A stretch of DNA of 13,232 bases from Salinivirgaceae bacterium (GCA_024405635.1 JAKSOL010000035.1:1-13232), one strand, 5' to 3'. Counted from the first letter of the stretch, positions 51 through 13,232 are shown. Numbers and translations are program-made. Notes: generated by a model from the letters alone, not told the origin.

Positions 51-2525
51 TTAGAATCGTATCTGCATCTTTGCCAAAATACCAAATGGCAACGCATCGG
101 GATGGTCTAAGTAGCTTAAGCGCCACACAGCATCAACTCGAAATACCTTAAAGATGTTTTCAATTCCAAAACCTGCCTCTGCATACGGTTTGTTGAGTAC
201 ATTTAGGTTTGTAGGAAAGAACAAGTCGTCGCTTGTGCGGTGAGTAAAATCGCCAAACAGAATTTTAGTTGTGGCTACCTCGCGCCATTTTAGTCGGCGC
301 ATAAGTGGTATGTGGTCAAAAAAGAATCCCTTAAAGTGATGCTCGGCCATAATGGTCAAATACTTATCGCTCACAAATTCGTAGTAGTTCATCAGGTTAA
401 AGGCATAATCGTCGTAGGCATAAGTTTGATTACCCTCGTGCAATTGTTGAAAAGGGAACGGAGCCTTACCCAACGTTATTCCCGCATCAACCACATATCT
501 GAAATCGCCCAAAGGATTTACGGGGAAAGTATGGTCAACGCTTGCGTGTATTTTACAATAACGGAACTCGCTACCTAACACATTGGGGACTCCAAAAGTG
601 GCGCCAAATGTCAACACTGGATATTTGGTGCCTAAACTGCGACGCTCAAATTTGCCCATAATAAATTTCTCGTTAAAGGCCAAACGCAAGTTAACCGACA
701 CCTCGCTAGTATTCAGTTTGTTAACACTTATTGTGTCGCCCGATTCGTCGGCTTTTAAGAATGGTACTGTTTCTGATGCATAAATACGTTTGTTGCGCAC
801 CTTAAGTTTTGTAGAAAAGCCAAGGAACCACTCGTGGTCGTAGTATCCGCCCATTTCGTTCACCTCAGTCAACTTATCGTTTTGCTTTCGGGCCAAAATT
901 GATGACAAAATATTGTCGGTAAGGAAAGCGTAATCGGTTAAACCAAGTTGCTCATTATCATGAAAATAGTACATGTTAGCACAACGGCGTGGCGACACAC
1001 TAAACATTTCGGTTGCGCCTAATCCGTATTTAAATTTTCTGTCGCGTGTACCGTATGCAACATGACCATACAGCATGTGGCGAGTACTAAACATGTTGCT
1101 TGTTCGAGCGCTCAACTTAAACCTACTTCCCTCAATAGGGTTAAAACTATATAATGTATAATATGGGCCTATTTCAATGTAATCTTTTACCCAATAACCA
1201 GTTACCAAAGTCTGAACAAAAGTTACAAAGTTGTTGAACAGCGGCACATTTTTCACCTCGTCAACCATTTGATAAATATTTTGTTCACGAACTGATAATT
1301 CCTCGTGCCGCATTGAATTCCACTCGTCGGCACTTTTTTCAAGCGCACTGTCAAGCATCACCGTTTCGGTTGGCATTCCAACTGTAAATGTTTTTTCGTC
1401 AAAGTTTGGATGCAAATCTATGTTGGTGTACGACGTTGTTTTTCGGCCAAAGAAACCATATTCCTTATCGGTTAGTGCAAAGTCCAAAAAAAGTTCCTGT
1501 TTCTTGGGAAACCACACCGAATCGTCAACAAAAGTAAACGACTGCTCGGCAACAAAATCACTCACAAAGTTTATGTTTACGCCGTCGGCTATGCGAATTT
1601 TATAACTCTCAATGGCAAATGTTGTGTCGTGAACCCAAAAATAGCCTGTAAAAGTAGGTTCTTGTTTGCGCTTTGGCTTAAACGAAATTTGATAGCACCA
1701 ATGGCCATCGCGATAAGCGCTATCGAGTAAATAGTATTTGTAGTACAACTGGCCAACATTAGCAATTGGGCTAACCATATCGTGTCCAAGAATTGGAACA
1801 AAATTGTCGTACAGATTAAAGTCAAGATACATTTTTCCAGTAAACTCCGACACCAAATCGTCTTCCATTCCCGAAATGCGATTAGCCTTTATCACCTCTT
1901 TTTCGTGCTTTGGACTTTTTTGGAAACTATAATCTGAAACTGTTTCGGTTATAAAAACCGGGAGGAATGTTTTACCTGTAATTGCCGAAGTATCAATGTA
2001 ATCGAATATAAACTGAAATTGTTTAAACATTTTTTTCTGCTTATAGTCTTCGGTCACATTGTTTATATCAACCTCCATTTTGTTATAAACCTCGTACTTG
2101 TATTTTTCTTGGCGAACGGGATTGTTGCGTTTACGGTTATCGTTAATTTTTCGCAGAATGCGGAAAGCTGGATTTTCGCCAGGACGTACCACAATCTCGT
2201 CAAGTTGAACATTTTCGGGTTGCAATTTCACCGTAACCTCCTGATACGAGCCATTTTGTACTGCTCGACTATAACGATTATATCCCAAGCACGACACTAA
2301 CAAACTATCGGCTTTGGTTCGGGTCTCAATAAAAAATTCGCCTTCAACTCCAGTAATTGTACCTATTGATGTGTTTTTTAGTACCACGTTAACAAACGGC
2401 AAAGCCTCGCCAGTTTCGGCATCAACCACAGTGCCGCGAATACGAGTAACCTGAGCCATTGCGCTATTACAAAGCACAATAGCCAAAAATGCCAATAGTA
2501 ATATTAGCCTTTTTGCTAAATTCAT
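51..2525 (-). CDS. DUF5686 / carboxypeptidase-like regulatory domain-containing outer membrane protein (Bacteroidota)
   Basis: 824-aa ORF; signal peptide ending AMA|Q; N-terminal IRGTVVDAETGEALPFVNV...GTITGVEGEF...VSCLGY is a typical CarbopepD_reg_2-like domain; YEVYNKMEVD, LPVFITET and PYAEAGFGIENIFKVFRVD motifs plus C-terminal Phe fit a DUF5686 beta-barrel family. Confidence 0.85.
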   Translation of the reverse strand: MNLAKRLILLLAFLAIVLCNSAMAQVTRIRGTVVDAETGEALPFVNVVLKNTSIGTITGVEGEFFIETRTKADSLLVSCLGYNRYSRAVQNGSYQEVTVKLQPENVQLDEIVVRPGENPAFRILRKINDNRKRNNPVRQEKYKYEVYNKMEVDINNVTEDYKQKKMFKQFQFIFDYIDTSAITGKTFLPVFITETVSDYSFQKSPKHEKEVIKANRISGMEDDLVSEFTGKMYLDFNLYDNFVPILGHDMVSPIANVGQLYYKYYLLDSAYRDGHWCYQISFKPKRKQEPTFTGYFWVHDTTFAIESYKIRIADGVNINFVSDFVAEQSFTFVDDSVWFPKKQELFLDFALTDKEYGFFGRKTTSYTNIDLHPNFDEKTFTVGMPTETVMLDSALEKSADEWNSMRHEELSVREQNIYQMVDEVKNVPLFNNFVTFVQTLVTGYWVKDYIEIGPYYTLYSFNPIEGSRFKLSARTSNMFSTRHMLYGHVAYGTRDRKFKYGLGATEMFSVSPRRCANMYYFHDNEQLGLTDYAFLTDNILSSILARKQNDKLTEVNEMGGYYDHEWFLGFSTKLKVRNKRIYASETVPFLKADESGDTISVNKLNTSEVSVNLRLAFNEKFIMGKFERRSLGTKYPVLTFGATFGVPNVLGSEFRYCKIHASVDHTFPVNPLGDFRYVVDAGITLGKAPFPFQQLHEGNQTYAYDDYAFNLMNYYEFVSDKYLTIMAEHHFKGFFFDHIPLMRRLKWREVATTKILFGDFTHRTSDDLFFPTNLNVLNKPYAEAGFGIENIFKVFRVDAVWRLSYLDHPDALPFGILAKMQIRF

Positions 2526-2528
2526 TTC

Positions 2529-3260
2529 TTACTTACGTAATACGAAATTTTTACCAAGATAAACACGACGCACCTCTGGGTCGTTGGCAAGTTCTTCGGC
2601 AGTTCCCGACATAAGAATTCGTCCGTCGTACAACAAATATGCTTTATCTGTAATTGCCAGAGTTTCAGCCACATTGTGATCGGTAATAATAATACCAATG
2701 CCCTTGTCTTTAAGTTTTCGAACTATTGACTGAATGTCTTCAACCGAAACAGGGTCAACACCAGCAAAAGGTTCGTCGAGCAAAATAAAGTGAGGATCGA
2801 TTGCCAAGCAACGGGCAATTTCAGTTCTACGGCGCTCGCCTCCCGATAGCTGAATACCAAGACTTTTGCGCACCTTGCCCAAACTAAACTCTTCAATCAG
2901 CGACTCAAGTTTCTCTTTTTGTTGAGCTTTTGTAAGGTCAGTCATCTCCAAAATAGACTTAATGTTATCCTCAACACTCAATTTACGAAAAACCGATGCC
3001 TCTTGCGCCAAATAACTAATTCCACGCTTTGCTCGCTGATAAATAGGCTCTTTGGTAATATCAACTCCATCAAGATATATTTTGCCGCTATTGGGTGTTA
3101 CCAACCCAACAATCATGTAAAATGAAGTTGTTTTGCCTGCACCATTTGGACCTAGCAAGCCAACAATAGTACCTTTTTCGCACTCAAAGGTCGAATCTTT
3201 CACCACAGTGCGACTGCCATATTGCTTAACCAAATGCTCGGTTACAAGTTTCATTGCCAT
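2529..3260 (-). CDS. lptB: LPS export ABC transporter ATP-binding protein LptB
   Basis: Walker [21 protein letters not shown], signature [13 protein letters not shown], Walker [18 protein letters not shown] and C-terminal VRRVYLG are all LptB-characteristic. Stop lies 3 nt before the start of the DUF5686 gene, suggesting an operon. Confidence 0.95.
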
Positions 3261-3296
3261 AGTCCAAGTAATGTATTATTGTTTTTGAAGCGGTCA

Positions 3297-3304
3297 CAAA
3301 AGTA
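3297..3304 (-). promoter_or_regulatory. Bacteroidota sigma-70 -7 element for lptB operon
   Basis: Minus strand reads TACTTTTG, an exact TAnnTTTG consensus, 36 nt upstream of the lptB start. Confidence 0.6.
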
Positions 3305-3458
3305 AGAAACTTTGGGTGTTTTACCCCACTGAAAACTTTTTTATGTCTTAAAGTTTTCAAAATGTCAAAATAACACCTTATTACATTTATTATCTACACT
3401 TTACAGGTATCATTTAGATACTCTACAAAAACCATATTCGTTATTTACGTTAAAAATT

Positions 3459-3466
3459 TACATTTG
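3459..3466 (+). promoter_or_regulatory. Bacteroidota sigma-70 -7 element for tRNA-Thr
   Basis: TACATTTG matches TAnnTTTG, 10 nt upstream of the tRNA 5' end. Confidence 0.65.
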
Positions 3467-3476
3467 CAGCCGCAAA

Positions 3477-3549
3477 GCCGATATAGCTCAGCCGGTAGAG
3501 CAGCGCATTCGTAATGCGGAGGTCGCGAGTTCGAGTCTCGCTATCGGCT
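3477..3549 (+). tRNA. tRNA-Thr(CGT)
   Basis: Acceptor stem GCCGATA/TATCGGC; D arm GCTC-AGCCGGTA-GAGC; anticodon arm CGCA-TTCGTAA-TGCG with CGT at 3510-3512; T arm GCGAG-TTCGAGT-CTCGC; CCA not encoded. Confidence 0.95.
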
Positions 3550-3554
3550 CTTTC

Positions 3555-3596
3555 AAAGCGTTTTCCCTTCGTTGGGCAAACGCTTTTTTGTTTTTC
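3555..3596 (+). terminator. Intrinsic terminator after tRNA-Thr
   Basis: AAAGCGTTT(T)CCC...GGG(C)AAACGCTTT hairpin followed by a T-rich tract. Confidence 0.75.
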
Positions 3597-3779
3597 ACTT
3601 TTTTTCAAAAAAAACATTTATAAAGTATTTTTTTGAATCTATTGTATTTCAACATTTTAAAACCATCAATACTCGTCGCAAGCTAGTAACAGCAACCATT
3701 TCCAATTGTTTTAGCACAATTTTTGCGCAATAGCAATACACATAACAAGTAGCAAATAAATAACTAAACATACATTATT

Positions 3780-5480
3780 ATGACCCATAAAAAATTAACC
3801 CCAGAAATCGGCATTGCTAGCAAATACGTGCTCACAGCAAAAGACGAAAATGGAGTTTTGTCGGCTATTGAATTTCAAAACACTAAGGACTTTAACTTTG
3901 CATACGACATTGTTGACGAATTGGGACGCACCAAGCCAAACAAATTGGCCATGCTACACATTGCAAAAGATGGGACCGAACGTCGCCTTTCGTTTGCCGA
4001 CATGATGGAAAACTCAAACCGTGTTGCCAATTTTCTTACCCAAATAGGCATAAAAAAAGGCGACCGTGTTATGCTTGTACTAAAACGCCACTATCAGTTT
4101 TGGTACACCATTTTGGCAATCCACAAAATAGGAGCAATAGTAATTCCTGCTACCAATTTGCTTGTAAAAGAAGATTTTGAATACCGATTTAAAGCAGGTA
4201 AAATTGATGCTGTTTTTTGCACAGCCGAAGACAAAGTTGCCGAAGAGATTGACAAAGCCACCGAAGAATATACCAACCTTAAAGCAAAGGTGCTTGTTGG
4301 CTCAAGAAAAATTAATGGTTGGCTCGACTTTGACCAAAGCATACAAAACCAATCAACCGAATTTGCGCGTCCTGAAGATGCTGCATGCGGCAACGATCCA
4401 ATGTTAATGTTCTTTACTTCGGGAACCACTTCGTATCCAAAAATTGTGTGCCACAGCCACACCTACCCTCTTGGTCATTACGTAACAGCACGTTTTTGGC
4501 AACAAGTTGATCCAGAAGGCATTCACTTTACCATTAGCGACACCGGTTGGGGAAAAGCTCTTTGGGGCAAACTATACGGACAATGGCTATGCGAGGCAGC
4601 TGTTTTCACTTTCGACTTTGAAAACTTCCACGCTAACCAAATAATGCAGATGATTCAAGATTACAAAATCACAACCTTCTGCGCTCCTCCTACCGTATAT
4701 CGAGTTTTGGTTCACATGGATTTGAGCAAATACGACCTTTCAGCTTTAAAACATGTTTCTACTGCAGGCGAGGCTCTAAACCCTGAAATATTCTACAAGT
4801 TCTTAAAGCAAACCGACATGAAGATTATGGAAGGATTTGGACAAACCGAAACTACCTTAACAATATGCAACCTTAACGGCATGGAACCACGCCCTGGTTC
4901 AATGGGCCGCCCTAGCCCACAATACAACGTTAAAGTTATGCGTCCCGATGAATCGTTTTGCGATGTTGACGAAACTGGCGAAATTGTGATTGAAATTGGC
5001 GAGCACGCACCCGAAGGCTTGTTTTTCAGCTATTTCCTTGACGATAAACGCACCGAAGATGTATGCTACAATGGTTATTATCACACTGGCGACACCGCTT
5101 ACATGGATGCCGAAGGTTACTTGTGGTACGTTGGACGCACCGACGATGTAATTAAATCAGGAGGTTACCGTGTAGGTCCTTTCGAAATTGAAAGCGAAAT
5201 AATGAAATTGCCATACGTGCTTGAGTGCGCAGTAACTTCGGTTCCCGATGCTATTCGTGGCCAAGCTATTAAGGCAAGCGTTGTTTTAACTCCAGGCACC
5301 GAGCCTTCCGATAAATTGAAAACTGAAATGATTAAGTTCTTCAAATCGACATTGGCCTCGTACAAACGCCCAAAAATTGTGGACTTTGTACCTGAATTGC
5401 CTAAAACAATCAGCGGTAAAATTCGCCGATCGGAAATTAAAGACAAAGACTGGGAAGAACAAAAGCACAAATTGAACTAA
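3780..5480 (+). CDS. AMP-forming acyl-CoA synthetase (acetate/short- or medium-chain acid--CoA ligase family)
   Basis: 566 aa; AMP-binding motif FFTSGTTSYPK, SDTGWGKA, GFGQTET, YHTGD, GRTDDVIKSGGYRVGPFEIE and catalytic Lys motif LPKTISGKIRR. Substrate cannot be determined from sequence. Confidence 0.9.
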   Translation: MTHKKLTPEIGIASKYVLTAKDENGVLSAIEFQNTKDFNFAYDIVDELGRTKPNKLAMLHIAKDGTERRLSFADMMENSNRVANFLTQIGIKKGDRVMLVLKRHYQFWYTILAIHKIGAIVIPATNLLVKEDFEYRFKAGKIDAVFCTAEDKVAEEIDKATEEYTNLKAKVLVGSRKINGWLDFDQSIQNQSTEFARPEDAACGNDPMLMFFTSGTTSYPKIVCHSHTYPLGHYVTARFWQQVDPEGIHFTISDTGWGKALWGKLYGQWLCEAAVFTFDFENFHANQIMQMIQDYKITTFCAPPTVYRVLVHMDLSKYDLSALKHVSTAGEALNPEIFYKFLKQTDMKIMEGFGQTETTLTICNLNGMEPRPGSMGRPSPQYNVKVMRPDESFCDVDETGEIVIEIGEHAPEGLFFSYFLDDKRTEDVCYNGYYHTGDTAYMDAEGYLWYVGRTDDVIKSGGYRVGPFEIESEIMKLPYVLECAVTSVPDAIRGQAIKASVVLTPGTEPSDKLKTEMIKFFKSTLASYKRPKIVDFVPELPKTISGKIRRSEIKDKDWEEQKHKLN

Positions 5481-5499
5481 TAAGTGTTTATATAAACCG

Positions 5500-5531
5500 A
5501 AAAGCCTCCAAGTAATTGGGGGCTTTTTTTT
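5500..5531. terminator. Bidirectional intrinsic terminator between acyl-CoA synthetase and the convergent cassette array
   Basis: AAAAGCCTCCAA-GTAA-TTGGGGGCTTTT hairpin with a T9 run on the plus strand and A4 on the other side; 20 nt after the synthetase stop. Confidence 0.85.
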
Positions 5532-6026
5532 GTTGACAAGATTACATCTTTAAGTACACGCTCGCCAACTTCGTCAAGTTCGCATTTCAAGCACCAATCG
5601 GTATAATCGGACATATTTACGCGCCGCCATAGATTGGAATTCTCATCATACTGGTAATACATCTCATCATAATCTTCGCTACTCCAAACTTTATCAGCAA
5701 CAAAATACCCCCATTAATCAATTTATAGTAGTATCTGTACGAACCTGGTGCATACTCGTACATACAAGATGCATCGTATTGCAATTCTTTCTTATTGTTT
5801 ACTAAATAGGTTAATTTATTACTTTGAACCTTATCCCAATTATTGCGGTTTTCCCAACATTTGTCTTCATAGATTTTTACTTCCCCCTCACTCTCATCCG
5901 CCAAGAACCCAAACAGCCCGCTGCCATGTTTCTCGTGCATCCAAGTCCACTGCCAGTGGTTGAGAGTGGTGCCACCGTTGTAATCCATCAGGTTGTCGGT
6001 GGTGCCTTCGGGGGCAAGGTAGTTGC
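5532..6026 (-). pseudogene. Degenerate third orphan CT cassette (metallopeptidase-module tail plus unique CT, frameshifted and truncated)
   Basis: Translates NYLAPEGTTDNLMDYNGGTTLNHWQW, matching the 8167..9924 and 10891..13179 proteins, then diverges. No HExxH and no genuine start. Apparent frameshift at the C5 run 5708-5712 joins ORF 5617..5988 to the frame of ORF 5477..5662, which runs into the terminator. No downstream partner gene. Confidence 0.7.
5947..6026. repeat. Copy C (80 bp) of the metallopeptidase-module direct repeat
   Basis: Aligns without gaps to 9673..9752 (5 mismatches by manual count) and 12034..12113 (9 mismatches). Confidence 0.93.
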
Positions 6027-6093
6027 CGCTTCGCTCTCGGTGCAGACGACGGAGTGGATTACATGGGAGAGGGTCGAGGAGATGGAAACTCTC

Positions 6094-6501
6094 TTATCTG
6101 CTGCCTTCAATTATCGCAAGCATCTCGGCTGGTGTAACAACGACAGGAGTTTTCGGAAAGTGTTTCTGATTGCCTGTTACCAGATATGCATCCTCTTTGC
6201 TTAGTGTAACCTCATAGAATATGCGGTCGTCCTCGTCTGGCATTATGGCATCGTATGGTATGCGTTCAGAGTCAATGCCATGCTCCTTTATTATGGAAAT
6301 CATAGCCTCGACAAGCTCTGGGGCAAACCGGAATTTGTCGCGCGAGAGGACCTCCTGGTACTCTGTTATTATATCGGAATGGTACAACGTAATAATCTTG
6401 CCTTCCAGAATACAAGATATAAGTTGCCTGATGATTGAAGTATCCGATTTGGACAGAAGTGCAGATACCAGAACGTTAGTATCTATTACGGCATGAATCA
6501 T
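6094..6501 (-). CDS. PIN-domain toxin of a type II toxin-antitoxin system (PIN_3-like family)
   Basis: 135 aa; AVIDTNVLVSALL, EYQEVLSRDKF, DEDDRIF and LVTGNQKHFP are conserved PIN acidic motifs; ATGA overlap with the upstream antitoxin. Confidence 0.9.
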   Translation of the reverse strand: MIHAVIDTNVLVSALLSKSDTSIIRQLISCILEGKIITLYHSDIITEYQEVLSRDKFRFAPELVEAMISIIKEHGIDSERIPYDAIMPDEDDRIFYEVTLSKEDAYLVTGNQKHFPKTPVVVTPAEMLAIIEGSR

Positions 6502-6794
6502 ACGGTCTTGTTTTTGCGTTCTGCCCTACATTCCGCAATTTCGGCATTGATTTCTTCAAGCGTCATTTCGGGTTCATTGAGGTGCGCTTGGCGATTCTCC
6601 TCCATAAGGCGATTGAAACGCTCTGTGGAAGTTTCCTTTACGCTTATCGTGAACGGGATACTGCGTGTTTCTGCTACCGCACGCATAAAGATGTTCATGG
6701 CGGTGTTAGCGCTCATTCCAAACTGTTTACAAAGACTGTCGAACGTTGCTTTCAGTTGTGCGTCTGTACGCACTGTCATTGTTGTTTGTGCCAT
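6498..6794 (-). CDS. RelB/DinJ-family antitoxin
   Basis: 98 aa; ribbon-helix-helix N-terminus TTMTVRTDAQLKATFDSLCKQFGMSANTAMNIF...IPF; C-terminal MTLEEINAEIAECR; 4-nt overlap with the PIN gene. Confidence 0.88.
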   Translation of the reverse strand: MAQTTMTVRTDAQLKATFDSLCKQFGMSANTAMNIFMRAVAETRSIPFTISVKETSTERFNRLMEENRQAHLNEPEMTLEEINAEIAECRAERKNKTV

Positions 6795-7036
6795 AAATGA
6801 ATGTATTATGAAGTCAGTATGCTTTCTTTTTGCATGCTAAGTTATATGTTATTTTTTAAACAACTTCAACTTCACTCGCTTTTTACCTCTGGTTTAACAC
6901 TTTTATGCCTTGAATCGCACGAAATGCCCAAGTGCACCTCGTCTTTTGAAAACATCAAACGATATTTGACAATGATTAATGATTAATACGTTTTACGTTC
7001 TATATTCTATCCAACTGCTACGCCACCACAACCGTA

Positions 7037-7061
7037 GTCACCCCGATGAAAATCGGGGTCC
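7037..7061 (+). repeat. REP-like palindrome GTCA-CCCCGAT-GAAA-ATCGGGG-TCC
   Basis: Perfect 8-bp stem ACCCCGAT/ATCGGGGT (7040-7059) with a GAAA tetraloop, starting with GTCA, no U-tract; single copy in the window. Confidence 0.5.
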
Positions 7062-7187
7062 CCACATCCAACGGCCAACCGCTAATGTTTAATGTGGCGC
7101 AATTTTTACTGGTTTATGGGTAGAGGTTGAAACTTTGCCTTTAGCCTCGACGTAGCGAAAGACAATAAAGAGAATGGAGGAAGATTA

Positions 7188-8150
7188 CTACTTAAGTCTA
7201 CTTTTATGTATAAATCCTCTCTTCTCATCATAAAATCTAACGACTTCAGCCCAATTCGTATCTTCTGTCCAATATACATAAACACCCTTGCCTTGAGGTA
7301 GAGTATATAATACCTCTGAACTTGCAGAAGGTTCCTTCCTGACATTAACAAAACCATCAGGGTCATTTACGACTTTCCTCTCTACCAATATTTTCTTCTT
7401 TACATCTACCAGTCTCATATATCCATCCGGCTCAAGTTTCAATACATATCTATTTGCCCAATTAGGATTAACATTCTCTTTCTCTTCCACGTCATCATCC
7501 TCGTCATCATCCTCGTCATCATACACAGAATTTTTGTAAGCCCACAAATCATACATATAAATAGTTTTGTCACGATCTATGAATGAACGTCTAGTATCTT
7601 GTGATAAATTAACTCCAGAAAGCATTTGCTGGGTTGACCTTTTGAATGTCAATAACTGAAAATAAGCAGCACCAGGCACATCGGGGTTATCAGGTCTATA
7701 AATAAATCTCAAGAGAATAGCGACAACATCATTTGGCAACTCTATCTTTGCTTCTGCATAAATAGATAACGACAATTGAGTTTCATCTCCAACATCTTCA
7801 AGATCTCGACAGGTCATCAAGAAATCAGAAGATATGAAAGATCCATCCTTCTTAAAGTGAGGAGGTGGTGTTTTCATATCATAAAGAGCATCAAATTGCT
7901 CATTCTTTATATGGTTGTATACATTCTTTGGCCCATTTTGAGGCTCCTCATACAAAATATTCCTTCGATATTCTTCTTCAGATATTGGTACCGGCAATTC
8001 ACCTTCTATGAATAGTCGATTTATGTCTCCCCACCCTATCGTAGCAATCTTAGCAAGAAATCTCTCAAACTCCTGCTGCATAGGAGTCTGTGAATTAACA
8101 CTTGTTTGCAACAATAGCACAACAATTATTGTCAATAACACTCGTTTCAT
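7188..8150 (-). CDS. Exported protein with C-terminal bacterial SH3 (SH3b) domain; putative immunity protein of the C39-like CT
   Basis: Start better placed at ATG 8150 (MKRVLLTIIVVLLLQTSVNS|Q, a signal peptide, 16 nt after the upstream stop) than at 8204. C-terminal VNDPDGFVNVRKEPSASSEV...NWAEV...RGFIHKSRLK (7191-7370) is SH3_3-like. Immunity role inferred from position only. Confidence 0.75.
   Translation of the reverse strand: MKRVLLTIIVVLLLQTSVNSQTPMQQEFERFLAKIATIGWGDINRLFIEGELPVPISEEEYRRNILYEEPQNGPKNVYNHIKNEQFDALYDMKTPPPHFKKDGSFISSDFLMTCRDLEDVGDETQLSLSIYAEAKIELPNDVVAILLRFIYRPDNPDVPGAAYFQLLTFKRSTQQMLSGVNLSQDTRRSFIDRDKTIYMYDLWAYKNSVYDDEDDDEDDDVEEKENVNPNWANRYVLKLEPDGYMRLVDVKKKILVERKVVNDPDGFVNVRKEPSASSEVLYTLPQGKGVYVYWTEDTNWAEVVRFYDEKRGFIHKSRLK
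7490..7522. repeat. 12-bp tandem repeat (CGTCATCATCCT x2.75) encoding acidic DDEDDDEDDD tract
   Basis: Units at 7490-7501, 7502-7513 and partial 7514-7522. Confidence 0.85.
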
Positions 8151-8166
8151 ACTTATTATTATTTGT

Positions 8167-9957
8167 TTACTGTTTCTTATTTTCTTTTTTTGAGAATACC
8201 ACATAATACTTCAACATGCCTCCATGAGCAGTATAATATGTAATATTTTCAGTAATAGGTTTACCATTCTTATCCACTACTACATTATTTTCTCGATCTG
8301 TTTTATTGCCAATTTCTGTTCTTGTGAGATATTCATTTCTTCCAGGTATTGACCTATCATTTATCCAATCCTTTACGTAATAGTCTTTTTTCTGATCTTC
8401 AGGCAAATCTTTTCCATCATTATCTATTAGGTCGGATTTATATATCTGGTTTCCTCTTACTTCATATGTGCCACCACGGCCGCTTGACTTTGACACATCT
8501 ATTTCGTCCCATGTTAGTGTACAATTTGAGCCATTATAATAACTTGAATTTTGAATATTTGTTCCATTAGTCGACCCTTGATACGACTCACCATGGTCAG
8601 GTTTTAATTCTCTGTATGCCATAGAAGATACATTGCCATAAGGGTCATCAACAACTATATTATCATTGCTAATTGCTTGAATCCTAACAATATGTCCTTT
8701 ATTGTTATACATTGAAAGAATTACACCTTTACCTTCACTTAATGCTTTATTTATAGCATTAATTGTATTTGTATTCTTTTTTGAAGAATTTACCATAGTT
8801 ACGGTCATTTCAACTCCTAGATAATTGGCAATTTGTTCCCACAATTCAGATTTCGTCCTATCTAAAGTAAAATTCTTCTTTACCCTAACAATATCCAATA
8901 TATCCTCAAAATCCTTATCTTTTTCAGAGGTAACATCAAACCCATCTTCCACAAGTTTATTATAAACATCTTCCTTAGAAATCCCCAACATTTCAAAAGC
9001 CATTGCCACTGACGTTAAGTTACACATGCGATCAGCTTCATATTTCCTATCTTTTTCTGTTTTTACTTCTTTACTCACAGATTTATTTTTATAACTTGGA
9101 TTATTATCCCTCTGATTATGATACGGCACTTTCTTCTGAAGCTCAAGATACAATTCTCCACGTTTTGTTTCGTCTTCAACATTTGAAATGCCGTTACGGA
9201 CTATTGCTATCTGTTGTGGTGTCAGTTCATTCATTGTCATCAGATATTCCCAACTTACAAACAACCAATTTGCAAGCTCATCAGCGTATTCTTCTTCAAC
9301 AAGTATTTCGAGTGCATTAGTGCTTTCGTTTTCAGTGTAGGTTGTAAATATAAACTTAATATACGAGCCTTCCTTTTCAAATGCATAATCACACTTTTCA
9401 ACTGCACAACTGCTTTTGTTACAGTTTATTGCCACATCTTCAAAAGCATGTTTCGCAATTGCTACATCTATTGTTTTGTCTCCCAATGGGTATTTGTGAG
9501 ACTCAAAGCCTATACCTTTAGTATCAATTGTGCAGAAGTTTTCCAGTTTGGCATTAGCATTGTGAATGGTTGCCAAAATTTGGTTCACTATGGCATCATT
9601 TTCATTCATCTCCGCCCCACTCTCGTCTTGCGCCCACTTCAGCCAAACTCTTTTGGGGGCATGAACATCTTGCCACTGCCAGTGGTTGAGAGTGGTACCA
9701 CCATTGTAGTCCATCAGGTTGTCGGTGGTGGCTTCGGGGGCTAGGTAGTTGCTTTGTGCAAAGGTGTGCTCCAAATGAAATGCTCCATGAGCTATCTCGT
9801 GGGCTATGGTACGGGCATTTGTGAGTTCTTTGTAGATAAAGCCATACTGATAGCCACGAGGCATATAGCCTGATGTTACGGTGTATCCATCGGTTTCGTT
9901 TAGGGTTACGGCATCTTCTACCATAAACAGATAGACGGTCTCGGCGTTAAGGCCTAG
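8167..9957 (-). CDS. Orphan toxin cassette: duplicated Zn-metallopeptidase module plus papain-like peptidase C39-like CT
   Basis: First ~106 aa nearly identical to an internal segment of the 10891..13179 ORF. CT has VPYHNQRDN (Q271), MCNLTSVAMAFEMLG (C301), GHIVRI (H411) and DDPYG (D427), numbered from ATG 9924, the C39-like catalytic set. The frame opens after TAG at 9958-9960; ATG 9924 is an internal Met of the carrier, so independent expression is uncertain. Confidence 0.75.
   Translation of the reverse strand, partial: LGLNAETVYLFMVEDAVTLNETDGYTVTSGYMPRGYQYGFIYKELTNARTIAHEIAHGAFHLEHTFAQSNYLAPEATTDNLMDYNGGTTLNHWQWQDVHAPKRVWLKWAQDESGAEMNENDAIVNQILATIHNANAKLENFCTIDTKGIGFESHKYPLGDKTIDVAIAKHAFEDVAINCNKSSCAVEKCDYAFEKEGSYIKFIFTTYTENESTNALEILVEEEYADELANWLFVSWEYLMTMNELTPQQIAIVRNGISNVEDETKRGELYLELQKKVPYHNQRDNNPSYKNKSVSKEVKTEKDRKYEADRMCNLTSVAMAFEMLGISKEDVYNKLVEDGFDVTSEKDKDFEDILDIVRVKKNFTLDRTKSELWEQIANYLGVEMTVTMVNSSKKNTNTINAINKALSEGKGVILSMYNNKGHIVRIQAISNDNIVVDDPYGNVSSMAYRELKPDHGESYQGSTNGTNIQNSSYYNGSNCTLTWDEIDVSKSSGRGGTYEVRGNQIYKSDLIDNDGKDLPEDQKKDYYVKDWINDRSIPGRNEYLTRTEIGNKTDRENNVVVDKNGKPITENITYYTAHGGMLKYYVVFSKKENKKQ
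9606..9942. repeat. Copy B (337 bp) of the metallopeptidase-module direct repeat
   Basis: Ungapped match to 11967..12303 (offset 2361); 16 mismatches by manual count, all within 9606-9742; 9743..9942 is 200 bp of perfect identity. Confidence 0.97.
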
Positions 9958-10019
9958 CTAGATGTGGAGCTTAATAATCTCCTTGTTTGCGAGACGGGAG
10001 AACAAGCCGAACGGTAAGC

Positions 10020-10922
10020 TCACTTTTCAATTTCTGTAACATAATAGAACCATAACAATCCCCCCATTTCACAGCCAATATCATAACCCAATTTATTTAT
10101 CACAAAAGATTCAACTTGTTTTAAATACTGCGCTTGGCCGCTACTAGATGCATTCTGATTGATGAAATCTTTTACGCTTTTGTTGGAATTCAAAATCAAA
10201 GGCACTTCATCTATATCATCAGTTGACACATAGTACAGACATTCATCTTGAATGTAATTTTTAAATAAATCACAGAATATTTGTTCTTGAAAATACAAAT
10301 GTCGCAACCAGTATATCAAAAACCACTTCGAACTGTAGCATGCACATGTATATCTATCATAATAATAAACATCCTTTTTATATTCCTCTATGAGCGATTC
10401 TATTATTCGATTGTTACATGTCCGAGATAGATTTTTAACAAAATACTCTTTTTCTGAAAAAACTACTGATGCGATAAATTTTTCCACTAAGTCATTAATC
10501 GTAACGCTATCCCCTAGCATCGCATTTGCCCACAAAGGATAGTTTTTATTAGGTTTTATCGTATCATTCACCATCGTCCTTAATAAAGGATATCTATCCC
10601 ATTGGATATCATAATTCTTTGCAAACTTTTTTATTAGCTCTTGATCTCCGTAATTAACCATGGTCAACTCCAAATCATACGAGTTATTACTTGAGTCTGC
10701 TATTGATGACAATGCTAAGCAATAGACGTCATTATCAGTAATATACACACTATGATTTGATTCAAGATTGTTCCTAATCAATTTGTCAATATCACTTCCT
10801 TTCTTTTTGATAATAACATCTTGAGCCAAAATACAATAACAATTAAAAAAGAGAAACGCTATACAACATATGCGTTTTATTACAAAGTCGCTAACGAACA
10901 ATTTTATCCCATTGTTTTTCAT
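10020..10922 (-). CDS. Exported hypothetical protein; putative immunity protein of the carrier's CT
   Basis: ~300-aa AT-rich ORF overlapping the end of the upstream ORF; hydrophobic N-terminus ending KRICCIAFLFFNCYCILA|Q. Start uncertain (10931 or 10922). No recognisable domain; role inferred from position. Confidence 0.6.
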   Translation of the reverse strand: MKNNGIKLFVSDFVIKRICCIAFLFFNCYCILAQDVIIKKKGSDIDKLIRNNLESNHSVYITDNDVYCLALSSIADSSNNSYDLELTMVNYGDQELIKKFAKNYDIQWDRYPLLRTMVNDTIKPNKNYPLWANAMLGDSVTINDLVEKFIASVVFSEKEYFVKNLSRTCNNRIIESLIEEYKKDVYYYDRYTCACYSSKWFLIYWLRHLYFQEQIFCDLFKNYIQDECLYYVSTDDIDEVPLILNSNKSVKDFINQNASSSGQAQYLKQVESFVINKLGYDIGCEMGGLLWFYYVTEIEK

Positions 10923-13232
10923 AACTATCATCCTTTCTAATTTTTAACTGTCTATTTCTCAATTTGCGAGCACCAGAACTATCGTAATAAAGCATAATAT
11001 TGTCTTGATTTACAGCATCTCCTCCAAGATCTAACAATCCAAAAGGACTACGATGAAGCCTCTCATGAACAATCACCTTATTTATGTCATTTGATTTATG
11101 TTTTATAATCTGTGGCGCGGTTGATATTCCTGCAAGGTTCCTCCAAACTAAAACAGTGTCAGAATATTCCCTTAAAACAGGGGTCCCAAGATATAAAGTA
11201 TCATTTTTTACATCTATTATGGTCAGTGTTTCTGTAGAAATATCTCCAATGAAAAGCTTATTAATCTGTTTATTCCTAATCTTATCATCTTGGTGTTTAA
11301 TAATAATTACCGTATCACCAACAGATATTGACCTTTTAAGTCTATATGATCTATGAATATCTGTATTTATCACCACAATGGATTCGTTCCTGTTGTTAGA
11401 ATAGTTTCCATTATTAAGTATACGTAATAATTCAGGATTATCACCTTCGGTGTAGATATCAAGAAATCCGTTATGGTTAATATCAAATGACAATTCATTT
11501 CTTGTAACTGAGAAATCCCCTATTCTAATAACAGCTTGACTAAACATTTTTTGTATGGCATCTTTATCTATATTGTCTAGATTCTGATTAATGCCATGTA
11601 TGTACAAGTTTGTACTAACTGAATTATATGAACAAATTCTTACTTTGTTTACAATATTTCCATTAATGCTATCCGTATGTATTTGAAGCATACTTGACCT
11701 AGCATAGTTAGTAAGAGATTTTATTGTTATATCATAGCCATCATGAACGCCAATGCTATCTACAACCATTTCAAAATCATTAGACACATTGTTGCTCATA
11801 CTGAAATACAACTTCACATTAGGGAAGTGAGTAGAGACATGAAATTTCGTTTCATTCATACATTCAACAGAAACATAATTATCATCGGTATTATCCATAA
11901 AATCTAAACCGTAATTTGTTTGTTCTGTCTCTGTAATAAAAACTTTTATTGTTTCATTATCAGTTCTCATCTCCGCCCCACTCTCCTCCTGCGCCCACTT
12001 GAGCCAAACTCTTTTGGGGTCATGCACGTCTTGCCACTGCCAGTGGTTCAATGTCTCACCACCGTTGTAGTCCATCAGGTTGTCGGTGGTGCCTTCGGGA
12101 GCAAGGTAGTTGCTTTGTGCAAAGGTGTGCTCCAAATGAAATGCTCCATGAGCTATCTCGTGGGCTATGGTACGGGCATTTGTGAGTTCTTTGTAGATAA
12201 AGCCATACTGATAGCCACGAGGCATATAGCCTGATGTTACGGTGTATCCATCGGTTTCGTTTAGGGTTACGGCATCTTCTACCATAAACAGATAGACGGT
12301 CTCATTATCGGTGCCTAATTCTTCGAGCTTGGTTATGGCAGCCTTTTGGTCGGTGTTATATACACCAATCACACCACTACCACCATGAGTAAAGTTGGTG
12401 CCGTTGGTGTAGTCTATCTCAATTGCTTCACTGACAGTTACATCAAAATCCACCATCAGTTTTGCAAAAATAGCATCAAGACCTTTCTTTAAGGTTTCAG
12501 CAGAAGGAACATTGCTTTTACCGATTGGTACTAGGCATATTTTGCGTGTTACTTTATCGTAACACATCACGTTAACTTTTCCTACTAAGGTTGTGTCTTT
12601 GTAGGCATATATGGCTAATGTATCATGGTCGCCAAATCCTGTTATGCTTAGTTCTCCGTTATTGCATATCACAGGCACACCTCGTTCCGTTTTGAAGGTG
12701 ATGTTTGTATAAGGGTCGGCATTCAGTTTTACTTTGGCATAACTCTCTATGCAAGCGTAAGCAGGTCGATAGTTGCCAGCTCCTATGCTTAGGAAACGTT
12801 GTGCGTAGTTTTGTGATGCTGTATGGCTTTTGTAGGAGTCGTAAGTATCAAACAAATAATCGCCTATGCTTGTGAATGTCACATTGCCCGTTGTAGCCAT
12901 CAGGCTGTCTTTTTCAGCACTGCGTTGGGCTAATAGTGTTTTATTGCCACCAGTTTGTTTGTATTCAGTGACGCCCATTAATTGCCCTTTGCTGTCTATC
13001 ACTAGTTGCTCGCCATTGGATGATTGTACTAGTGTGCGACTTTTTGAACCAACATTTGCTGTTATGTCTTTTTCATTTCCGTCGGCATCTACTGCTATAT
13101 AATGTCCTTTTTCGTTTATGTATATGGTTGCAAAGTTGGTGCTGAGCTTGACGGTGTCGCGTATGGTGTTGTCCACCACAATAATGCTATCGGCCTGCGC
13201 AAAGGTTTGGATTGGCGCAAGGAGGAAGAGGA
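10891..13232 (-). CDS. Putative polymorphic toxin carrier (5'-partial): conserved region, metzincin-like module, and variable CT with a second HExxH motif
   Basis: Frame is open from GTG 13179 to the window edge (..LFLLAPIQTFAQADSIIVVDN). HEIAHGAFHLEH (HEIAH at 12148-12162) plus Met-turn-like DNLMDY; junction ESGAE|M at 11970; CT of ~359 aa has HERLH (11053-11067), FGLLD, DNIMLY and QW. Confidence 0.75.
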   Translation of the reverse strand, partial: LFLLAPIQTFAQADSIIVVDNTIRDTVKLSTNFATIYINEKGHYIAVDADGNEKDITANVGSKSRTLVQSSNGEQLVIDSKGQLMGVTEYKQTGGNKTLLAQRSAEKDSLMATTGNVTFTSIGDYLFDTYDSYKSHTASQNYAQRFLSIGAGNYRPAYACIESYAKVKLNADPYTNITFKTERGVPVICNNGELSITGFGDHDTLAIYAYKDTTLVGKVNVMCYDKVTRKICLVPIGKSNVPSAETLKKGLDAIFAKLMVDFDVTVSEAIEIDYTNGTNFTHGGSGVIGVYNTDQKAAITKLEELGTDNETVYLFMVEDAVTLNETDGYTVTSGYMPRGYQYGFIYKELTNARTIAHEIAHGAFHLEHTFAQSNYLAPEGTTDNLMDYNGGETLNHWQWQDVHDPKRVWLKWAQEESGAEMRTDNETIKVFITETEQTNYGLDFMDNTDDNYVSVECMNETKFHVSTHFPNVKLYFSMSNNVSNDFEMVVDSIGVHDGYDITIKSLTNYARSSMLQIHTDSINGNIVNKVRICSYNSVSTNLYIHGINQNLDNIDKDAIQKMFSQAVIRIGDFSVTRNELSFDINHNGFLDIYTEGDNPELLRILNNGNYSNNRNESIVVINTDIHRSYRLKRSISVGDTVIIIKHQDDKIRNKQINKLFIGDISTETLTIIDVKNDTLYLGTPVLREYSDTVLVWRNLAGISTAPQIIKHKSNDINKVIVHERLHRSPFGLLDLGGDAVNQDNIMLYYDSSGARKLRNRQLKIRKDDSYEKQWDKIVR
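11967..12303. repeat. Copy A (337 bp) of the metallopeptidase-module direct repeat
   Basis: Direct repeat of 9606..9942; encodes ETVYLFMVED...HEIAH...WQW...ESGAEM. Confidence 0.97.

Follow-up and report, generated by a model that had tools for sequence, protein, structure and literature searches.

A probable TANFOR-related polymorphic toxin/immunity locus of Bacteroidota, with variable tips behind a predicted metzincin domain

What kind of system repeats one conserved protein module in co-oriented genes and ends each copy in a different tail? We addressed this question for a contig of a Salinivirgaceae bacterium (GCA_024405635.1, JAKSOL010000035.1:1-13232; a gut member of the Bacteroidales, genome 2.66 Mb, 40% GC). 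The window, meaning the whole stretch of DNA analysed, is this entire 13.2-kb contig (C29), and every feature of the array lies on its minus strand (Table 1). The array consists of one short-form toxin gene (gene A, presumed to be expressed) with a candidate immunity gene (immA), one intact spare cassette (gene B with its own candidate immunity gene, immB) and one decayed cassette (C). Our reading, to which we give a probability of about 0.72, is that the window is the distal part of a polymorphic toxin/immunity locus, working as set out below, of a Bacteroidota family related to the TANFOR toxins (Jana, Salomon and Bosis 2020, PMC7073777).

Genes A and B both carry HEIAHGAFHLEH...DNLMDYNGG..LNHWQW...ESGAE. 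Over 337 nt, which encode the C-terminal part of a zinc-peptidase module, the copy in gene A is 95.3% identical to positions 9606-9942 in gene B. Past the acidic boundary (ESGAE or ESEGE) the two genes end in C-terminal regions, CT-A and CT-B, that are unrelated (best BLASTP E 0.99) and much poorer in GC (0.31 and 0.34, against 0.50 in both modules and 0.40 in the genome; immA has 0.31 and immB 0.36). The genes that follow, immA and immB, are unrelated to each other, and both start with a signal-peptide-like N-terminus, a feature judged here by reading the sequence rather than with a predictor. An initial annotation, made from the sequence alone, had described the AT-rich, unrelated tails and the signal-peptide gene behind each of A and B, and both descriptions were confirmed. 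It had also counted three copies of the module, of which two (~112 aa each, in A and B) stood, the third being only a remnant of ~55 residues without HExxH. The repeats are not an assembly artefact, the objection which that annotation had raised against itself: on this one contig each copy has flanks of its own, and three other studies yielded contigs over parts of the toxin array. Contigs of four sequencing runs did not span 9854-11950 (immA, CT-A and part of the gene A module), which is not readable as absence, and one RNA run gave no contig over CT-B or immB, which is not readable as silence. RNA-library contigs at 12266-13172 could not be assigned to gene A because part of this region is 99% identical to a paralogue on contig C8.

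The module that genes A and B share belongs, according to structure prediction, to a known fold. In an AlphaFold2 model of gene A residues 1-445 (predicted local distance difference test, pLDDT, 81.9), Foldseek matched the module to profragilysin (E 2e-6), ADAMTS, archaemetzincin and snake-venom proteinases. With VIA-align, the catalytic domain gave Z 12.5 against adamalysin-type proteinases (164 residues aligned, root-mean-square deviation 3.1) and Z 11.3 against ulilysin. The model thus shows the module as the C-terminal portion of an entire adamalysin/pappalysin-like metzincin domain, which bears out the zinc-peptidase anchor of the initial annotation, and in one relative (P0099) a Pfam match to Peptidase_M43 falls on the module itself. 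The zinc motif HExxHGxxxLxH is kept in 176 of the 184 stored relatives, and NLMDY is a candidate Met-turn. Fragilysin and the adamalysin/pappalysin metzincins have the catalytic fold in common with the gene A module at a sequence identity of 9-16%; unlike them, the metzincin of gene A sits inside a larger trunk and has a variable toxin domain behind it. The variable region sets in directly behind the last metzincin helix, in a linker modelled with low confidence (residues 407-445). A PVC-metallopeptidase, which we take to be Pfam DUF4157, was also considered as the identity of the module and was set aside; the Pfam search gave no DUF4157 match.

The family is large. A profile of the module matched 2042 cluster representatives at E<=1e-3, of which 301 reach E<=1e-30, a word-based search returned 45 relatives (every named one called hypothetical), and 444 candidate stretches in species-level genomes of Bacteroidales, Cytophagales, Flavobacteriales and Lewinellaceae encode a relative. 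The module occurs in 12 of 401 genomes sampled evenly across the phylum. Full-length proteins have 900-2139 aa, with the module at about residues 700-940. Elsewhere in the genome of the window the module recurs on contigs C4 (in a 1290-aa gene and two truncated copies), C8 (1601 aa), C14 and C23.

The tips behind the module vary across the family. Single-linkage clustering grouped the 158 C-termini of 120 aa or more into 33 clusters, a number that is not to be equated with 33 toxin types, as this clustering merges many C-termini through a common adapter. The two largest clusters are joined in this way, with tips that differ beyond the adapters, and gene B belongs to the second of them. Among 44 shorter relatives, 10 had a recognisable Pfam family at the C-terminus (AHH, EC869-like, M15_4, three DUF5675 and four reprolysin-like), and among 30 long relatives 11 had one (ART, M23, PT-HINT with WHH, PT-HINT alone, RES, MafB19 deaminase, M15_4, DUF5675 and three metzincins). 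The initial annotation had proposed just such a profile search of Bacteroidota with a tabulation of C-termini, and the accepted toxin domains among these tips, together with the paired small genes, the constant trunk and the recurring orphan cassettes, uphold its idea of a polymorphic toxin family with swappable tips. Its statement that Hint is absent holds for the window and fails for the family, PT-HINT being present in 2 of the 30 long relatives.

Orphan cassettes recur as well. At least two copies of the module were found in 10 of 79 sources, and 16 internal orphans begin at profile positions 2, 27, 44-46, 75, 85-86, 150 and 159 of 201. One complete genome of the same taxonomic order shows the whole pattern: behind a 1564-aa gene and its downstream gene stand at least six cassettes, each of which starts at ..TT.NLMDY.., the same cut as in remnant C, and is then followed by a small gene. 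The orphan array of this complete genome (G243, contig C1, 3.038-3.065 Mb, L095-L097) contains a 240-aa gene three times and a 247-aa gene twice, with near-identical minus-strand open reading frames (ORFs) between the cassettes; this array grew by duplicating whole units.

Cassette B is mobile: contigs of three independent studies, all with immB and the CT-B tip, depart at 9227 into the same other sequence, and the locus L043 pairs a CT-B-like tip with a downstream gene related to immB (phmmer E 1.7e-6). Movement of cassettes is further supported by the occurrence of CT-A on another trunk type and by the GC of 31-36% in tips and immunity genes against 50% in the module. The departure point lies near the adapter-tip junction of gene B. 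CT-B-like tips on other trunks were found in P0020, P0036, P0049, P0025, L043, L048 and L067.

The nearest described toxins are those of the TANFOR class. Of 36 long forms, 27 have the TANFOR model TIGR02542 as the top or only match at their N-terminus (E 3e-13 to 0.08), with Fn3 following, although every match stays below the curated cut-off (best 49.8 bits against 67), which counts against the assignment. Judged by these matches, the long forms appear to belong to the TANFOR polymorphic toxins or to be their close kin, and gene A is a short form without TANFOR. As far as the available portion of PMC7073777 describes them, TANFOR toxins resemble the present family in being confined to Bacteroidota, in having a Sec signal peptide and in their polymorphic C-termini (AHH, WHH, deaminase, peptidoglycan hydrolases) with a downstream immunity gene. 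They resemble the long forms in their N-terminal TANFOR-like domain and Fn3, and the loci of relatives in having a gene for an SprB-repeat protein with a type IX secretion system (T9SS) sorting domain immediately upstream, and the genome of the window has a T9SS, as their hosts do; the link to T9SS was put forward there as a hypothesis. Unlike them, gene A has neither TANFOR nor Fn3, and its signal peptide runs straight into the middle of the trunk; neither Pfam nor NCBIfam gave a match for gene A.

The TANFOR class is thus already in print, and what the window and its relatives add to the available portion of PMC7073777 is the metzincin as anchor, a short form of the toxin, arrays of orphans and the partner genes described below. 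The words 'metallo' and 'orphan' are absent from its main text. In its table of 339 TANFOR proteins 'metallo' occurs three times, and the two occurrences seen lie in neighbouring genes; 'Prevotella', the genus named on the closest locus found (L005, 64% identity), is absent from that table. The accessible part of the paper mentions neither a metzincin pre-toxin module or recombination anchor, nor 5'-truncated orphan arrays, nor a short form, nor partner genes for a barrel, an Fn3 protein and two families of unknown type. Literature searches for toxins of T9SS or of Bacteroidota found no follow-up to that paper, and among the papers that could be reached only PMC7073777 treats TANFOR in substance.

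The layout of the window is also that of the Rhs, CdiA-CT and MafB loci, where a full-length gene and its immunity gene are followed by 5'-truncated cassettes that keep a conserved stretch, each with an immunity gene, and where the base composition of the cassettes differs from that of the conserved part. The window differs from these loci in that genes A and B show no YD repeats, no VENN/DUF637, no two-partner secretion (TPS) domain with a CdiB partner and no MafB-N (Pfam and NCBIfam, E<=0.01), and in that the common anchor is a C-terminal subdomain of an enzyme fold, namely the candidate Met-turn region and the last helix of a metzincin. The initial annotation had likewise seen no Rhs/YD, VENN, haemagglutinin, PAAR, VgrG or LXG signature, and Pfam and NCBIfam found none in the window proteins.

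Clustering of the neighbours of 79 loci gave five partner families, co-oriented with the toxin gene: F1 (~575 aa, 32 loci), F2 (~690 aa, with Fn3, 23 loci), F3 (SprB repeats and a sorting domain, 21 loci), F4 (~305 aa, 15 loci) and F5 (~1530 aa, 12 loci). The typical gene order is F3, toxin, immunity, F4, F5, F2, F1, and at least one partner family is present in 21 of the 28 loci with a full 20-kb context. In 25 loci the toxin gene has F1 or F3 as its direct neighbour, at a distance of -3 to 381 nt. F3 proteins (~2300-2600 aa) carry Por_Secre_tail; they are encoded directly upstream of the toxin gene in 14 loci and present in 15 of the 28 full-context loci. The model of F1 is a large all-beta barrel of ~26 strands (pLDDT 77.7), nearest to MtrB (TM score 0.54), the FimD and PapC ushers and LptD. 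F4 is helical, with weak atlas leads to HEAT repeats. F1, F4 and F5 matched no Pfam or NCBIfam family, apart from sub-threshold hints for F1 (OmpX and PEP-CTERM outer-membrane models). The genome of the window encodes F1 and F2 downstream of its C14 array, and F4 upstream of its C4 gene. Examples are L003 199-1926 (-) and its relatives (alignment A5) for F1, L078 13542-18134 for F5, L007 14803-15720 for F4 and L003 1932-3980 for F2. In the available part of its supplement, PMC7073777 lists a protein of 571 aa with a signal peptide, encoded 2 nt upstream of Pedobacter TANFOR genes, that resembles F1 by size and place only. A TANFOR-like N-terminus common to F1-F5 was considered and rejected, as a profile of the long-form N-terminus matched only the Fn3 repeats of F2. 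Complex prediction of the genome's own barrel (24-575) with the long-form N-terminus (34-300) gave 0.48, 0.00 and 0.00 in three runs and has no bearing either way. Small unrelated genes also recur in these clusters: a 23S rRNA intervening-sequence protein between barrel and toxin (5 loci), IS200-like transposases and an ORF6N-domain protein (L060 7175-7612, L032 13359-13928, L078 13023-13526).

In the polymorphic-toxin reading, the product of gene A would reach the periplasm through the Sec signal peptide read from its sequence, and would consist of a constant trunk ending in a complete metzincin, an acidic linker and a variable toxic tip, CT-A. The layout of the genes suggests that immA encodes the cognate exported immunity protein of CT-A. 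Cassette B would be a stored alternative, made of the 3' part of the metzincin, a C39-like tip and an exported immB product. Homologous recombination at the 337-nt repeat, modelled on the switching of Rhs, CdiA and MafB orphans, could place CT-B and immB behind the trunk of gene A in place of CT-A and immA, and the orphan immunity genes would protect against neighbours carrying those tips. Passage through the outer membrane would probably depend on the partners seen in relatives, namely the ~26-strand barrel, the Fn3 protein, the two proteins of unknown family and the SprB-repeat T9SS cargo. One may go further and see in the metzincin toxins and their co-oriented neighbours a dedicated contact-dependent delivery system of Bacteroidota, in which the barrel carries or anchors the Sec-exported toxin beside a T9SS-displayed adhesin, the metzincin cuts the tip on contact and short forms use the machinery in trans; we regard this larger proposal as doubtful.

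Several observations weigh against the polymorphic-toxin reading or its kinship with TANFOR. For every member found, toxicity, neutralisation, cleavage and secretion are inferred, as is recombination between A and B. Pfam recognised no C-terminal family in 33 of the 44 shorter and 19 of the 30 long relatives. The window has no partner gene, and neither do 7 of the 28 relatives with a full 20-kb context; upstream of gene A, the contig ends at the start of the gene. Within the module, the third zinc His stands one residue later than in the classical HExxHxxGxxH, and some relatives (P0028, P0031, P0040) have Leu in place of the Met of NLMDY. Gene A is without any TANFOR region, the genome's long form on C8 matches TIGR02542 only at E 0.03 (15 bits), and its other long form does not match at all. 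Finally, the metzincin is present in only 2 of the 7 TANFOR-matching ORFs of the sampled genomes, so that the metzincin-bearing toxins would form a subset of the TANFOR class. TIGR02542 matched 4 of the 401 genomes of the phylum sample at E<=1e-5, none above the cut-off, and the model is too narrow to define the class in this sample.

Why should a peptidase precede the variable tip? In the accessible portion of the survey by Zhang et al. (2012, PMC3482391), peptidases before a toxin domain are treated as processing enzymes, in a position assigned to autoproteolytic release. The releasing peptidases named there (HINT, ZU5, caspase-like, papain-like and PVC-metallopeptidase) resemble that of gene A in lying directly before the toxin domain and differ from it in fold, which in gene A is that of an adamalysin/pappalysin-like metzincin; 'metzincin' and 'pappalysin' are absent from the first 300,000 of the 357,715 characters of the paper. 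In addition, the available text of PMC3482391 ties PVC-metallopeptidase to contractile injection systems, whereas gene A appears to be Sec-exported. By its position, the metzincin may cut the tip free or mature the protein, at the cell surface or on the target cell, a role that we put forward tentatively and at rather less than even odds.

The metzincin might instead be the effector itself, degrading surface or periplasmic proteins of the target or a receptor for tip entry, or acting as a second toxin of every variant. Its catalytic motif is conserved in nearly all of the stored relatives, its nearest folds are secreted toxins and sheddases (fragilysin, adamalysins), and PT-HINT, an accepted releasing domain, stands beside it in some relatives, where a second releaser would be redundant. 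Moreover, some peptidase families both process and poison, as the part of PMC3482391 available to us states. However, the metzincin is internal and invariant, whereas the toxin activities of the class are C-terminal and variable; it has no dedicated immunity gene, and orphans keep only its C-terminal part and yet have their own downstream gene. Several relatives, furthermore, carry a second, different metzincin at the tip. We consider an effector role unlikely.

It is far less probable that the family members are secreted hydrolases of several domains that remodel the cell wall or break down nutrients, with downstream genes that encode periplasmic inhibitors or are unrelated. Many tips are indeed of peptidoglycan type (C39-like, CHAP, M15, M23, DUF5675), and the downstream genes of the window match no known immunity family, but other tips are AHH, WHH and EC869 nucleases, a MafB19-type deaminase, ART and RES, arrays of truncated orphans paired with small genes are characteristic of polymorphic toxins, and the AT-rich cassettes stand in different contexts in other samples. 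That the toxins are cargo of a type VI secretion or contractile injection system, or ordinary T9SS cargo with a C-terminal sorting domain, is hardly credible: the genome does have a T9SS (GldK 590 bits, SprA 2473 bits, 32 Por_Secre_tail matches), but the proteins carry Sec signal peptides, searches with Pfam and NCBIfam detected no PAAR, VgrG, Rhs, DUF4157-type domain or Por_Secre_tail in genes A and B, contig C29 holds none of the 32 Por_Secre_tail matches (type B C-terminal-domain models were not searched separately), and a variable C-terminus is hard to square with a C-terminal sorting signal.

If the polymorphic-toxin reading holds, the locus bears on the only link so far proposed between T9SS and bacterial warfare, the TANFOR toxins, whose middle region has been blank. 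The metzincin at the tip junction, the spare cassettes cut inside it, and the barrel and three unknown proteins that accompany the toxin gene offer handles on toxin delivery and diversification in Bacteroidota, with relevance to gut and rumen Bacteroidales and to soil and marine Cytophagales and Flavobacteriales. In addition, the module profile catches members that the TANFOR model misses, both short forms and divergent long forms below its cut-off.

Gene A is open at the contig end, where ~10 residues of its signal peptide are missing; its visible start, ..LFLLAPIQTFAQ/ADSIIVVDNTIRD.., is the end of that signal peptide. This was judged by comparison with a 97-aa ORF and with P0002, P0003 and P0008, in which the signal peptide stands directly before DNTI[RK]DT. 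The 97-aa ORF (L004 8266-8559, minus strand, contig C23 of the same genome) consists of a signal peptide and the first ~60 residues of a short-form trunk, then a stop, and is the truncated start of another short-form gene. Positions 12873-13172 in the trunk of gene A are 99.3% identical over 300 nt to contig C8 59177-59476, whereas the proteins of gene A and the long C8 paralogue are only ~54% identical overall; this near-identity points to recent gene conversion between paralogous trunks. The contig breaks 60 nt past the shared 300 nt, probably because of the near-identity. An acidic linker (..WAQEESGAE) connects the metzincin of gene A to CT-A, which has an HERLH...NIMLYY motif of its own. 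The single homologue of CT-A (P0185, 51% identical) keeps HERLH..NIMLYY and lies on a trunk of the other boundary type. CT-A has no Pfam match; atlas leads, to be taken as leads only, went to M43, astacin and reprolysin clusters (scores 0.80-0.91), and CT-A is probably a second metzincin-like peptidase. immA overlaps the 3' end of gene A by 41 nt and matches no Pfam or NCBIfam family at the cut-off.

Homology of gene B to gene A begins at 9942. The frame of gene B is bounded by stops at 8167-9957 and closed 11 codons 5' of the first ATG, it includes neither trunk nor signal peptide, and the module profile aligns to it only from position 86 of 201; as a toxin, gene B is plausibly silent. Its tip, CT-B, matches PF13529 (E 1.2e-8, 36 bits against a cut-off of 24), and a sequence search of solved structures returned only chance-level superoxide dismutase rows (E 0.18 or worse). 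The likely start of immB is an internal Met at 8150, which gives the signal peptide MKRVLLTIIVVLLLQTSVNS, and its SH3_3 domain has E 6.2e-9 in Pfam. At 7490 in immB, contigs of two other studies are 12 nt shorter within an Asp/Glu-rich repeat, a length polymorphism. In cassette C only ~80 nt (94% identical to B, 89% to A) are common, encoding NYLAPEGTTDNLMDYNGGTTLNHWQW...ADESEGE, and the module profile aligns from position 150 of 201. The boundary type of this remnant resembles that of the C4 and C14 paralogues (85-86% over 108-120 nt). Its C-terminus is apparently split over two frames (5617-6093 and 5477-5713), and no gene follows it.

Table 1. Features of the toxin array in the 13,232-nt window
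Feature	Position	Strand	Description
Gene A, short-form toxin gene	10891-13230	-	779 aa visible; open at contig end
Domain order of gene A			signal peptide, beta-rich trunk, metzincin, acidic linker, CT-A
Metzincin catalytic domain of gene A (from model)	11995-12567	-	residues 222-412; contains HEIAHGAFHLEH and TDNLMDY
Repeat copy within gene A	11967-12303	-	337 nt; proposed recombination anchor; GC 0.50
CT-A	10894-11970	-	359 aa; rare tip
immA, candidate immunity gene for CT-A	10020-10931	-	303 aa; signal-peptide-like N-terminus
Orphan cassette B (gene B)	8167-9924	-	585 aa; last two thirds of metzincin module, adapter, C39-like cysteine peptidase tip
Peptidase_C39_2-like domain of CT-B	8638-9132	-	residues 265-429 of gene B; Pfam PF13529
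immB, candidate immunity gene for CT-B	7188-8204	-	338 aa; C-terminal SH3_3
RelB/DinJ antitoxin gene	6498-6794	-	type II toxin-antitoxin pair with PIN
PIN toxin gene	6094-6501	-	type II toxin-antitoxin pair with RelB/DinJ
Remnant cassette C	5477-6093	-	last ~55 module residues (core 5947-6026), short C-terminus

Ordinary genes occupy positions 51-5480 of the window and encode an outer-membrane protein, LptB and an acyl-CoA synthetase. A RelB/PIN pair (GC 0.45) separates immB from remnant C; it abuts the 5' cut of C and was identified by Pfam (RelB E 1.1e-9, PIN_3 E 4.7e-19) and NCBIfam (TIGR02384 and TIGR00305). The pair is not part of the metzincin toxin family; it may be an insertion in the array, or may contribute to its stability.

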